Assembly (NCBI GenBank): GCA_052168235.1
Contig: JBQLZK010000018.1
Span: 1-64,000, forward strand
Direction of reading: 5' to 3'
DNA: 64,000 nt
Origin: Thainema sp.
GTDB lineage: Bacteria; Cyanobacteriota; Cyanobacteriia; Phormidesmidales; Phormidesmidaceae
Shown here in pieces: positions 27,001-30,000 of this stretch. The first letter of the stretch is position 1, and the number at the start of each line of letters is the position of its first letter. The position numbers were made by a program.

Positions 27001-30000
27001 ACCTAAATAATGTCTCTTTGGAAATTCCTTTGTATTAAATACCCTTTGTAGTTCTTTTGTAGGTTGGGTTGAAGCATGAAACCCAACGAGCGTATGGTTC
27101 GCGTCAACTCAACCTACACAATTTGAGATCGCAACCTCTTCCATCGTGGAACTGCGATCTCACTACACGAGAGATATAAGTACTCTAATTAATAGACTTT
27201 ATTTGTTGCATGTAATTAAAGCTAAAATGGCCAATCAGATAACTAAGAATCAACACTATATTCCCCGCTTTCTACTAAACAACTTTGGTTGGAGAGCAAA
27301 TAAAACAAATAGGATAAACATAATTGACATCAACCGTTTTACTGCGAGATATGATCAGTCGATAGCAAAAAACTTTTCTCAAAATTACTTTTACGATAGA
27401 GATAATTCTGTCGAAAATTGTTTGCAGAAGTACATTGAAGATCCTGCTTGCGGAAGTATCAGAAAAATTCTTGATGGAGAGACTTCAATATCTATTGAAG
27501 ATCGCCATGCCATTCTTATATTTGTCTCCGTACTTTACTTCCGTACTGTTGAAGCCACGGAGAAGGCTCTTTCCTTCATGGAATCATTTTATCAGTCAAT
27601 AGTTGAGCAAATAGTGGCTCTCAATGGCTTCAATCCAGATCACACTCCAAGGCTGAAAATCAATCTTCAAAATCCTAGTGATTTGACTTCCAGAATGGTT
27701 TTTCAAGGATTTATTGATGCAAAAATATTAATAGATCTGGATCTTCATATTATTAAAAATAATTCTGACCTAGGTTTTTGCATATCTGATCATCCAGTAT
27801 TTTTGTACAACTGGTTTTATAAAGACTTAAAGCACCCAGCTGTAACCAGTCTAACTGCAAAAGGCTTACAAATTTTCTTGCCAATATCACCTAACCTACT
27901 AATTCTTTTGTACGATTCAGACACCTATAAAGTTGGCAAAAAGAATTCAAGTATAACCGAGTCCGAAGATATTAATGATGTTGAAATCTTGAATTCGTTC
28001 CAGCTGTTGAACTCAAGATCTATAATAGGTTTTCGCAATCAAACGGATGAAATTAGCTTAATGAAGCTTCTCCGTAAAAACAAAATGAATAAAATATATG
28101 AGCACAAGAGTGCTACTTCTCGGGTAGAAGACGACTTAACGGGAGAAATTAAAACAAATCATCTTGTTTTCACAGATCAACTCAAAATAAAGAAAATGCC
28201 ATCATTTATAACAATAAGGAAAGACGCGAGGAAAGATTTATCTTCCTTTTATGAAAGAAATCCGGCTCTCTCTGCCATACATCAAAGTTATAGAAATAAG
28301 ATCTTACGAGCAGAAAACTGAATTTAAGTTGCTTGTCAATATAATCCTAGAATCCTTTCTAATCGTCTCTGTCAATGAACCTGTATTGACTCCAAAAGCC
28401 AAATCCCGTACTGTGAAACGTTAAGTTGCCTTGGCAACATCACCTGCAACGGCAACTGGATACCAAAAATCTAGTCAGCGCTACCCAGAGTTGCGGCAAC
28501 AACCCTGGATAGCTAACCCCCGGTTGGCGTAGGCAACGCGGAGGCTTGAGGGATCATAACCCAGAGCCACCCTGCATTGCACTTCAGGATTGCGGGGTGG
28601 CTAGGTTTTTGGCTTTCCTCTCGAAAGTCAAAAACACAAGGAAACACAATGACATACCTCTTCCTCGGTGCTGCCTCTGAAGCAGCACCACAACCCGCTG
28701 CGACCATTCCCAATCAACCAACTCGCGATGGTCGCCATCCCCTGCGGATTATCCTGCTCGGCACCCGTCCTGACATCATTGTCACCATCAAAAACCTGCA
28801 TCGGCGCGGCTTTGCCGAAGCCAACGAATGGAGCCAGCCCATCCCCTGCCCCAGTGCCGGAGACGTAGCGCGCATCCTGGCTCAGCGCCATCCCGACGAC
28901 CAAATCAGCATCCTCACCCGCCATCTCAGCTAATCGGTTGAAGTTGAGATATCCCAGAAACCGGGTTTCTTGTTTCGCGTATTTTGTATAACCAAATGCT
29001 TGCGACAGAAACTCGGTTTCTAGATCTAGATAGAGAAGCATTTCCACCACCTGATGGAGTGCGATCGCATCCTGAATTTTTTAGAGTTTAGGAATAGAAA
29101 CGTTGCCCCAATACAAGTTACAGATACAAAGTTAATGTCCTATCGATTTAAAAAGCAGGAAGCCGTTCCAATTGGTATTAAACGCATCGCTGACGAACAG
29201 ATTGAGTCGTCCATTCATCAGCTCACGCGCAGTATCAAAGCCAATCGAGATGAAGCCATTCACAGCGCTCGCAAACACTTCAAAAAACTGCGAGCACTCG
29301 TTCGATTACTGCGGGATGATGTTGGCCACGATGCCTACAAGCAAGAAAACGTCTGCTTCCGCGATGCGGGTCGCGAACTGTCTGACGTGCGTGATGCCCA
29401 AGTGCGCGTCGAAACCCTCGACGACCTGCTCGATCACTATCAGGACACGATCAAACCTAAGCAGTTTGATCAGATTCGCCAAGTTCTCGTCGATGCCTAC
29501 GAGACGGCCCGCAAATCCGCAGCGCCCAATAAAAAAGAAATTGCCGACATCGTGTCCGATCTAGAAGCCGCCCAAGCCCGGATTCAAGCCTGGGGCATCA
29601 ACGACGAATGGGCCGCGCTTCAGGGCGGACTGCACCGAGTTTATAAGCGAGGCTATCAAGACTTCTTCCAGGCGTGCGAACAGCCCACTTCCGAGAATTT
29701 ACACGAATGGCGCAAGCGGGTGAAATATCTCTGGTACCACCTGCGAATTCTGTCCCCGATGTGGCCCAAGCCGCTGAAGGTACTGAAAAAGCAGACCAAG
29801 AAACTGGCTGACCTACTGGGCGATGATCACGACCTTGCCGTGCTGCGGACATTTATTAGCGATGACCCAGAAGCGTTTGCCGATGACGATCAGCTCGGCG
29901 TCCTGCTGGCCCTGATTCAGCGGCGACAGATTGAACTACAGACCAAGGCTCGGTTCTTGGGTCAGCGGATCTACGCAGAAAAGCCCAAAGCATTTGTTAA

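Follow-up and report, generated by a model that had tools for sequence, protein, structure and literature searches.

A multicopy structured leader RNA preceding an orphan small-protein gene in Thainema sp. and other cyanobacteria: a candidate cis-acting regulatory RNA

The cassette found at positions 28368-28933 (+) of the window, the whole stretch of 64,000 nt analyzed here (contig JBQLZK010000018.1 of Thainema sp., assembly GCA_052168235.1, positions 1 to 64,000), raises the question of what a long structured leader can do in front of an orphan gene when both are repeated many times in the same genome. A preliminary description had proposed that the cassette is a dispersed multicopy module, that it begins with a promoter of the form TTGACT-17 nt-TACTGT, that its leader is a structured RNA class absent from Rfam, and that this RNA is tightly linked to an unnamed family of small proteins; all these proposals are borne out by the data given below, the promoter in the sense of a promoter-like sequence.

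Copies of the cassette and their genomic setting

Each copy is composed of a promoter-like site, a leader of about 230 nt and an ORF coding for 92-94 aa; covariance model R1 identifies 13 RNA-bearing copies in this genome, including the one in the window. A blastn search of 28368-28933 on its own genome returned 19 matching places: 11 are whole copies with 79-87% identity, one (on C153) is near-whole and another is divided between two contig ends, C4 and C145, which can be considered a single split copy since its orthologue is contiguous in G007, a genome of the same genus; fragments and diverged ORFs account for the remaining places. The homologous segment runs from 28368, 281 nt ahead of the ATG, to the stop codon at 28933. 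In an alignment of 12 copies the flanks proved unalignable and nothing was shared at the boundaries. Other small hairpin repeats are present in the flanks, and the window copy has DUF4238 and CHAD genes as neighbors, with no HTH gene adjoining. Comparison with G007 revealed that three to four copies are orthologous and that the others are located at synteny breaks; no clean pair of filled and empty sites was found against this genome. Orthologous copies are 93-95% identical versus 75-89% between paralogues, indicating that the copies are older than the species split.

The promoter-like site is kept in 11/11 whole copies; it was omitted by the consensus scan because its -10 box matches TATAAT at only three of six positions. 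In other genera, a like site lies at most 130 nt upstream of P1 (40-86 nt) in 22 of 24 leaders. Among 11 copies the promoter segment is 83% identical, and the 3' leader, including the Shine-Dalgarno region, is 81% identical and conserved along with the core; both are far more conserved than the synonymous sites of the ORF (dS 0.54). No second promoter-like site was detected between core and ORF, either by inspection of the sequence or by the consensus scan. Transcription would be predicted to start from the upstream site, ahead of the variable hairpin P0, whose main stem shows changes on both sides in 7/7 pairs and which is missing from the G308 lineage. Metatranscriptome contigs of relatives (two RNA runs and two DNA runs) span leader and ORF, although contigs cannot show ends; one relative's contig stops near 28620, which is no evidence of an RNA 3' end.

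Table 1. Features of the window copy of the cassette
Feature	Position	Strand	Basis
Conserved element TCTGTCA.T.A.C.. before the -35 box; onset of homology	28368..28385	+	alignment of 12 copies
Promoter-like site: -35 TTGACT (28386-28391), 17-nt spacer, -10 TACTGT (28409-28414)	28386..28414	+	sequence
P0, variable 5' hairpin between presumed start and core	28424..28457	+	constrained fold
P1, 5' strand CCAAAAAUCUAGUC, partner 28599-28612	28463..28476	+	99% of cells paired on alignment A3
P2 hairpin	28480..28513	+	11/12 pairs changed on both sides
J2/3, unpaired conserved UAACCC, part of motif GCUAACCCC	28514..28519	+	leader alignments
P3 hairpin	28520..28541	+	every pair covaries on model-fitted alignments
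P4 hairpin, GGCUU...GAGCC, AU-rich loop	28543..28568	+	model-fitted alignments
P5 hairpin, GC-rich, stem of terminator-like element	28569..28598	+	inverted repeat I3
P1, 3' strand GGCUAGGUUUUUGG, including U-run 28606-28610	28599..28612	+	as for the 5' strand
P6, small hairpin CUUUC/GAAAG	28613..28627	+	folds
Shine-Dalgarno-like AAGGA, 6 nt before ATG	28638..28642	+	sequence
ORF, 94 aa: variable N-terminus (residues 1-27), conserved core (residues 28-94)	28649..28933	+	sequence, alignment

Fold and conservation of the leader

In the leader core, 28463-28612, the 14-bp long-range helix P1 closes a five-helix junction that includes P2-P5. The fold of the 241-nt leader has an energy of -91.1 kcal/mol, compared to -68.0 +/- 4.3 in 200 shuffles (z -5.4), none of which was as good, and covariation is strong on three alignments. 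On a model-fitted alignment of 30 leaders from 16 genera, 89.5% of the cells pair and 47 of 70 pairs have changed on both sides, a score reached by 0/500 shuffles, with slid controls at 32-49%; with 31 leaders from at least four families the values are 87.4% and 59 of 70 pairs with compensatory changes, counts that overstate independence because the sequences are kin and most alignments are fitted to the model. On A6, which MAFFT aligned with no fitting to the structure, P1, P2 and P5 pair at 82-88%; here P1, whose outer pairs covary in 10/10 cases on alignment A5, is paired at 88%, while P3 and P4 reach only 52% and 58%, since A6 misaligns both of them and shifts their register. P5 has five to seven pairs with changes on both sides.

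The junction itself carries near-invariant motifs, namely GCUAACCCC, GGAGGCU and GCC.CC; the UAACCC of J2/3 is near-invariant in 28-31 leaders from several families. The G308 lineage shows the same architecture and retains the motifs CUAACC, GGAGGCU and AGCCAUCC, and its P1 differs in sequence (AAGCGCUCAAAC/GUUUGAGCGCU). A five-helix junction with such motifs is compatible with an aptamer, but it is no proof of one. A search of Rfam 15 on 28200-29100 at E<=10 yielded only miRNA- and snoRNA-type rows with 9.7-20 bits, against thresholds of 40-100, which are chance matches of the miRNA type; the loci of nine relatives, searched at E<=0.1, gave one miRNA row, outside the leader. A full-text search of the literature provided no description of this RNA, although the supplementary tables of PMC12873609 might still hold it. 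That 2026 screen of 202 cyanobacterial genomes, in the part of the publication consulted, searched only beside 931 KEGG orthologue groups, and would miss the leader because orphan genes are outside this set (PMC12873609).

A leader-peptide attenuator was considered and rejected: there is no ATG between 28415 and 28648, indels between copies are not multiples of three, and the upstream open frame varies by copy from 94 to 166 aa.

The 3' end of the core contains a terminator-like element. The segments 28565-28576 and 28591-28602 form a hairpin (12 nt, 92% complementary) followed by AGGTTTTTGG; the GC-rich stretch 28565-28602 precedes AGGUUUUUGG, whose U-run belongs at the same time to P1, as its 3' strand; it is paired to the A-run 28465-28469 and covaries with the helix. 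The terminator and the long-range helix had been described as alternatives; the overlap of the U-run with P1 holds in this genome, but it is not conserved, since the G308 lineage has a GC-richer P1 and no U-run. Because the U-run belongs to P1 and disappears where P1 is GC-richer, termination is to be regarded as a non-conserved feature, and a terminator/P1 switch would be lineage-specific at best. Where the U-run is missing, the RNA shows no evident 3' end ahead of the ORF. An antiterminator that RNAalifold suggested for the genome's own 12 copies (GCAACGC..GGCU / AGCC..GCAUUGC) was discarded, as it is invariant within the genus and finds no complementary counterpart in other genera.

A second contact of P1 concerns the ribosome-binding site. 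CUUUCCU in P6 is complementary to the Shine-Dalgarno region, which reads AGGA or GGAG at this position in the other copies, and P6 can be extended to 13 bp (28605-28617 with 28623-28635), an extension that would exclude P1. According to the folds, an equivalent hairpin masking the Shine-Dalgarno occurs in other lineages; a hairpin containing this sequence abuts P1 in most lineages, being commoner than the terminator/P1 alternative, and P1 shares 2-8 nt with the downstream hairpin. In 9/11 leaders of other lineages the Shine-Dalgarno is predicted to be unpaired with a probability of <=0.1. When the partition function of 22 leaders was computed with P1 left free, forced or blocked, the P1-forced and P1-blocked ensembles are about 0-5 kcal/mol apart, as expected if a factor decides between the two states. 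The same folds did not reveal a uniform direction, and they give no general support to a P1-dependent unmasking of the Shine-Dalgarno: in other lineages it is masked with P1 forced or blocked alike, and in this genus it is mostly open, with forced P1 lowering its accessibility in 7/11 copies.

The small protein and the distribution of the RNA

The ORF is intact in 11/11 whole copies, with a dN/dS of 0.22 over its full length and 0.12 in the core, and is under purifying selection, as judged from these substitution rates. Relatives are numerous (40 in one search, 331 representatives at E<=1e-3 in another); however, the 94-aa protein matches no Pfam family at E<=1 and no NCBIfam entry, PADLOC has no model for it at E<=0.1, PHROG gave no match and viral contigs held no relative, a profile search of PDB sequences returned nothing below E 0.17, and ESM Atlas matches are limited to unnamed cyanobacterial clusters. 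AlphaFold2 models improved from a pLDDT of 60.6 with 19 sequences to 76.5 with 113, the core exceeding 90; fold searches found only generic small alpha/beta matches (best Z 4.5 with VIA-align wide, best E 0.28 with Foldseek on the PDB), and such a search cannot exclude a family, a caveat for any comparison with ToxN/AbiQ-like proteins. The invariant or near-invariant residues of the core are only W, G, L, A and S, and catalytic-looking polar residues are absent, which suggests a binding protein. The net charge of the conserved domain ranges from -2 to +6, and the RNA-led members are no more basic than those paired with HTH genes.

R1 matches 110/151 genomes of the taxonomic family (G000 included), in 16/19 genera, and 7/150 other cyanobacterial genomes, with 20 matches in G308 (f22), five in G443 (f15), four in G155 (f3) and one in each of two genera of f2. 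The earlier count was 5/150, and the proposed restriction to one family plus a single genus has to be abandoned, as at least four further families are involved. Altogether there are hundreds of RNA copies across at least five cyanobacterial families, with 13-20 per genome; many matches are confined to the P1-closed core (model positions 50-202). The family ORF was identified at 27/30 R1 loci, the other three being cut by contig ends, and thus it lies downstream, at a fixed short distance, in 27/27 assessable loci. In Oculatella sp. LEGE 06141 the RNA is present at 7/7 loci and is followed by the family ORF in 7/7, and all 18 copies fetched from G308 have both this ORF and the conserved leader. 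The pairing is not exclusive, contrary to the earlier claim: f2 has three loci, in two genera, where an unrelated orphan gene of 197 aa follows the RNA.

Conversely, no such RNA is present at the distant members of the protein family. The preliminary description had indicated another pairing for them, and the partner is a divergent XRE/HTH_3 gene of about 80 aa, not co-transcribed with the small-protein gene; two locus-specific palindromes are placed around a -10-like box, and a few of these loci lie beside DNA methylase, Dnd-like or HNH genes. This genome has the same arrangement too, at one locus on C20 and another on C6. These RNA-less, XRE-paired members, the 197-aa gene and the non-conserved nature of the terminator/P1 alternative are new in this analysis. 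Since either an RNA leader or a dedicated XRE gene is found at the family loci, the family seems to be generally under dedicated local control.

Possible role of the leader

On balance, the leader is probably a new, portable, cis-acting regulatory RNA with riboswitch-like properties. The cassette would be an autonomous, monocistronic unit, whose own promoter drives a 5' leader of about 230 nt, with its core of about 150 nt, running into the 94-aa gene; the leader would hold this gene silent as its default state. On this reading many transcripts of the lineage would end at P5 and the U-run, and the read-through mRNA would be poorly translated, because a hairpin that overlaps the 3' strand of P1 contains or adjoins its Shine-Dalgarno region. 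The output would then be set by a trans factor that stabilizes or opens the P1-closed junction, the favored one being a small ligand, as for a riboswitch, and the other option a protein effector; gene context suggests no candidate ligand, since both downstream families are orphans. The near-exclusive linkage to one orphan family and the 13-20 copies per genome are unusual for a metabolite riboswitch, and were counted against this reading. More tentatively, it is conceivable that a new riboswitch class, or another factor-sensing switch, acts as a portable controller of orphan genes, and that in several lineages it took over from the locus-specific XRE repressor the dedicated locking of a large family of paralogous small binding proteins. 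If so, 13-20 copies per genome would be switched independently, which would point to an unrecognized signal and small-protein regulatory system in filamentous cyanobacteria.

A different possibility is that RNA and protein are a cognate pair, in which the terminated RNA, made in abundance, binds the small protein and serves as its type-III-like antitoxin or as a ribonucleoprotein partner, or the protein autoregulates its synthesis via the leader; this appears unlikely, as does the corollary that each cassette is a self-contained addiction-like or feedback module. Type III loci such as ToxIN, CptIN and TenpIN have one promoter, a structured non-coding RNA with tandem repeats of 34-45 nt, a terminator-like hairpin and a protein gene. 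The order of elements in the cassette is the same, the cassettes are autonomous, multicopy and dispersed among unrelated neighbors, as type III units can be, and some copies are non-syntenic in a species of the same genus; the residues conserved in the core, which point to a binding protein, and the occurrence of relatives beside XRE-type HTH genes and, in a few cases, DNA methylase, Dnd-like or HNH genes, are in line with this proposal. However, the RNA is a single 150-nt five-helix junction and not a series of tandem repeats: Tandem Repeats Finder gave 0 rows on 28300-29100 at score >=30, and no direct repeat longer than 11 nt was found. Moreover, neither Pfam nor PADLOC relates the protein to ToxN or to any other family, its conserved residues do not look catalytic, its charge does not increase in RNA-led members, the HTH genes are divergent, and two species have retained several orthologous copies in good condition; finally, with the RNA also standing before the unrelated 197-aa ORF, a cis-regulator that responds to a common signal is a better fit than a cognate pair.

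A stand-alone small RNA gene, producing an RNA of about 190 nt up to the U-run that acts in trans, with the ORF as a separate, adjacent or read-through gene, has a rather low probability. The promoter-like site, the terminator-like 3' end, the matches of R1 often limited to the P1-closed core and the variable downstream gene could be explained in this way, and so could P1, as stable RNAs typically have their 5' and 3' ends paired with each other; nevertheless, the constant spacing to the same ORF family, the joint conservation of core, 3' leader and Shine-Dalgarno region, the single promoter-like site and the lineages with no evident 3' end before the ORF all argue against it. A mobile or selfish repeat (MITE-like or IS-derived), whose sharp boundaries would derive from transposition and not from function, is the least credible proposal and can hardly be sustained: the boundaries are sharp, the copies dispersed and in part at synteny breaks versus G007, and hairpin repeats occur in the flanks, but no inverted repeat joins the ends, no target duplications are visible in the flanks of the 12 copies, a transposase is absent, no relative is found in viral contigs or PHROGs, and both the intact, selected ORFs and the age of the copies, which predate the species split, are contrary to it. 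Promoter and stop codon are the boundaries expected if selection keeps the functional unit only.

Coming back to the riboswitch-like, cis-acting leader, a structured cyanobacterial 5' leader before a small protein gene has a precedent in the glutamine riboswitch, which is reported to precede gifB/IF17, coding for a small regulatory protein (PMC6212724). The fold of the cassette leader is a multi-helix junction closed by P1 next to the ribosome-binding site. Differently from the glutamine riboswitch, the leader is much larger, it matches neither that class nor another one in Rfam, and its 13-20 copies per genome stand nearly all before one orphan family. Autoregulatory leaders of ribosomal-protein operons also occur almost only before the gene family that they putatively control; here, however, the protein is not consistently basic and the RNA is found before an unrelated gene as well.

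Large, well-supported structured RNAs outside known classes are rare, and it is mainly from them that new riboswitches and ribonucleoproteins come. The function of the leader is directly testable, given the hundreds of copies, the clear covariation and the existence of a carrier in culture (Oculatella sp. LEGE 06141). Through the RNA, the roles of both orphans, the small protein and the 197-aa protein, could be found. The distant family members resemble XRE/C-protein-type systems, in which a repressor with paired palindromic operators exerts dedicated local control; in the window copy, which has no such gene at its side, the RNA takes the place of the repressor, and this swap between RNA leader and protein repressor at one gene family represents a natural experiment in the exchange of control devices.

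The module and its copies

The module, which lies between a DUF4238 gene on its upstream side and a CHAD-domain gene on its downstream side, joins a promoter-like site, a structured leader with helices P0 to P6 and a small orphan ORF, as listed in the table below. Extension of the ORF frame upstream reaches a TTG at 28577, inside P5 (nominal 118 aa), but the stretch at 28577-28648 is taken to be open by chance and not coding, since its length varies among copies and the leader indels are non-triplet.

Features of the module in the window and of related loci
Feature	Position or loci	Strand	Basis
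Conserved upstream element	28368-28385	+	sequence
Promoter-like site, 17-nt spacer	-35 TTGACT 28386-28391; -10 TACTGT 28409-28414	+	sequence
Leader, ~230 nt	between promoter-like site and ORF	+	sequence
P0, variable hairpin ahead of core	28424-28457	+	
RNA core, 150 nt, five-helix junction	28463-28612	+	
P1, closing helix around P2-P5	28463-28476 with 28599-28612	+	
P2	28480-28513	+	
P3	28520-28541	+	
P4	28543-28568	+	
P5	28569-28598	+	
P6, small hairpin after core		+	
ORF, 94 aa	28649-28933	+	sequence
RNA core with 197-aa orphan, two genera of family f2	L135 807-958 and 1102-1692; L136 771-992; L143 1-710		
HTH-paired members in this genome	contig C20 (L018), ~94995-95600; contig C6 (L019), ~32280-32910		
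Loci with divergent ~80-aa XRE gene	L018, L019, L052, L053, L055, L059, L067, L070, L074, L075		

Module copies were found by blastn at 19 places in the genome: 11 are whole (79-87% identity to the window copy), one on C153 is near-whole, one is split across the contig ends C4/C145, where a contiguous orthologue in G007, the second species of the genus, shows the join, and the rest are fragments and diverged ORFs. Scanning with R1, a covariance model built from 12 leaders of this genome, gives 13 RNA copies. Homology among copies runs from 18 nt ahead of the -35 box as far as the stop codon; the flanks are unalignable, except for unrelated small hairpin repeats. The ORF is intact (92-94 aa) in all 11 whole copies. 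Its dS among them is 0.54, and its dN/dS ratio is 0.22 over the full length; the ratio is 0.51 in the variable N-terminus and 0.12 in residues 28-94. Conservation is far higher in the promoter segment (83% identity) and in the 3' leader (81%) than at synonymous sites, so that the simplest account of the sharp boundaries is that they mark how far selection preserves the sequence. Orthologues in the second species are 93-95% identical, whereas paralogues reach 75-89%, which indicates that the paralogues predate the split of the two species.

Just behind the ORF, at 28952-29037, lies a long hairpin with 15-nt arms (AGAAACCGGGTTTCT / AGAAACTCGGTTTCT) plus a TCTAGATCTAGA palindrome; related repeats follow the copies on C28, C11 and C153, a CCCTAAATCCCTCTCC or CCCCCTTAAAAAGGGGG hairpin takes their place behind other copies, and a GGTTGGGTTGAAG...AAACCCAAC hairpin precedes several. 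All of these belong to small repeat families dispersed in the genome and are distinct from the module. Between murG and the gene after it, a stretch of ~105 nt (~31260-31365) has matches at >40 places in G007 (72-87% identity), in many cases on both strands at one place; it looks like a palindromic, MITE-like dispersed repeat. Upstream, visibly A+T-rich DNA at 26021-28321 holds three ORFs without clear families and then the DUF4238 gene (27146-28321); it is unmatched in G007, where the downstream CHAD and murG genes do match, and may be a strain-specific insertion with the module at its edge.

Structure and range of the leader RNA

The 241-nt leader folds at -91.1 kcal/mol, against -68.0 +/- 4.3 for shuffled sequences (z -5.4; 0/200 as good). 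When 30 leaders (16 genera) are aligned by fitting to R1, 89.5% of cells are paired and both-side changes occur in 47/70 pairs, figures that, as in the alignments below, overstate independence because the leaders are kin; none of 500 shuffles did as well, and slid registers gave 32-49%. With three more families added (31 leaders), pairing is 87.4% and both-side changes rise to 59/70 pairs, including 10/10 outer pairs of P1 (0/500 shuffles; slid registers 34-50%). An alignment by MAFFT only, not fitted to structure, still pairs P1 at 88%, P2 at 86% and P5 at 82%, with P3 and P4 at 52-58% owing to register errors; both-side changes are found in 33/52 pairs, its pairing was reached by 0/500 shuffles, and slid registers gave 37-53%. 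In G308, a genome of a different cyanobacterial family, 18/18 fetched paralogues have a leader of the same helices, in which CUAACC, GGAGGCU and AGCCAUCC are kept and P1 differs (AAGCGCUCAAAC/GUUUGAGCGCU); these leaders are the strongest single argument for the predicted RNA structure. No Rfam family matches the RNA.

R1 matches occur in 110/151 genomes of the taxonomic family, this one counted, and in 16/19 genera, with up to at least 14 scored matches per genome. The multicopy structured leader with its orphan ORF, reported in the preliminary description, is confirmed and proves broader: 7/150 other genomes of the phylum match, rather than five, namely 5/5 of genus g21 (family f3) and one in each of two genera of f2. 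Targeted scans gave 20 matches in G308 (f22), 5 in G443 (f15), 4 in G155 (f3), a single weak one in G167 and zero in G344. At loci found by protein motif, the RNA is present in 7/7 of Oculatella sp. LEGE 06141 and 1/1 of a Leptolyngbyaceae genome, and in none of four marine genomes.

The small protein and the proposed role of the leader

A profile of 19 close relatives recovers 331 representatives at E<=1e-3, typically of ~83 aa with the pattern REPLRxLxIGS..GV..TI..LH..GFAE..EWSPL.P..NPGEVMSILTRY. No Pfam family was found in 23 of 24 relatives tested; the other, a 1,422-aa repetitive protein, gives only weak and unrelated rows. The family occurs in 35/301 sampled cyanobacterial genomes (23/134 genera) and is frequently multicopy, with as many as 18 or more per genome; at least 19 members are present in this genome, 13 of them RNA-led. 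AlphaFold2 (113 sequences; pLDDT 76.5, core >90) predicts a strand at 30-38, helices at 40-52 and 71-76 and a strand at 85-93, and a search of solved folds with this model gave no clear match. Only W61, G38, L50, A56 and S62 are invariant or nearly so in the core, which argues for a putative binding protein rather than an enzyme.

A family ORF lies directly downstream in 27/30 R1 loci (30 genomes), the other three being cut by a contig end, and a TTGNNN-16..18-TANNNT site stands <=130 nt upstream of P1 in 22/24 leaders (chance expectation, by our own arithmetic, ~0.1 per leader). The leader is moderately likely to be a cis-acting regulatory one, and a stand-alone small RNA is quite unlikely. 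The linkage to the family ORF has an exception in f2, where the core stands before an unrelated ~197-aa ORF (MSQNLITSG...), once in G152 and twice in G245; the product of this ORF has no Pfam family, and hhalign finds no resemblance to the small family (probability 0.1%). This orphan is well conserved in Coleofasciculaceae-type cyanobacteria, at 60-98% identity in many genomes and metagenomes, and four other homologues are without the RNA. A cognate RNA-protein pair, type-III-like or autoregulatory, is unlikely: the layout is that of a type III toxin-antitoxin locus, but the defining repeat array and ToxN-type protein are lacking, and the conserved domain has a net charge of -2 to +6, not higher in RNA-led members. 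Because an unrelated gene, too, can follow the RNA, and because the protein shows no RNA-binding signature, a portable riboswitch-like cis-regulator answering to a shared signal is favoured over such a pair; the earlier interpretation is upheld in part, as to an unnamed structured RNA class linked to a small-protein family, but not as to an exclusive tie with one protein family. The module showed neither terminal inverted repeats nor target duplications nor tandem repeats, and the neighbour genes of the 11 copies are mutually unrelated (LRR-Roc, ClpP, ClpS, KAP NTPase, LysR, GST, HlyD and others); that it is a mobile repeat is very improbable.

As a cis-regulator, the module would act in the manner of a riboswitch or attenuator leader; expression could be held low by two elements, P5 with its U-run and a Shine-Dalgarno hairpin. 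P5 with the AGG-UUUUU behind it has the look of an intrinsic terminator whose stem base stands 8 nt from the U-run end; this U-run forms the 3' strand of P1 and is gone where P1 is GC-richer. Commoner than this is a P1-adjoining hairpin that contains the Shine-Dalgarno region (such as GGGAUUCCUU...AAGGAAUCCC or GCGCUCCUU...AAGGAGUGU). P1 overlaps this hairpin by 2-8 nt, and in 9/11 leaders of other lineages the Shine-Dalgarno has a predicted unpaired probability of <=0.1. P1-forced and P1-blocked ensembles are only ~0-5 kcal/mol apart, so that a factor could decide between the two states and set the output; since the folds show no uniform direction for this effect, the switch logic is one that we infer.

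Neither the RNA nor the protein falls in a curated family, and a full-text literature search found no description of the RNA; a 2026 screen, which covered 202 cyanobacterial genomes, is reported to have searched beside KEGG-annotated orthologue groups only (PMC12873609).

Distant members with an HTH partner

When 29 loci from other families were sorted by what adjoins the small-family gene, a divergent ~80-aa HTH_3/XRE gene (MGKAGKALK.VLETYGISQN...) was found in 10, the R1 RNA in 6, a same-strand 109-aa ORF with weak HTH matches in 3, a DUF7662-HTH_3 gene in one and nothing recognised in 9. This genome has two HTH-paired members, and three to four more diverged ones with neither RNA nor HTH partner. 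In the HTH-type intergenic regions (~100-135 nt) two palindrome copies flank a -10-like box and a hairpin adjoins the HTH start. Such paired, locus-specific palindromes are the probable signature of a dedicated, locus-specific repressor, and their sequence, which differs at every locus, suggests co-varying repressor-operator pairs. The small-protein family would generally be under dedicated local control, and in the lineage of the window a structured leader would stand in place of the repressor.

Sets of DNA-modification genes enclose or adjoin some of the HTH-type pairs, with an HNH nuclease nearby at L051, an N6/N4 methylase at L052, and at L053 a DndD-like AAA_23/SMC protein together with a large protein that has a weak row to a Pfam family of small Dnd-system proteins.
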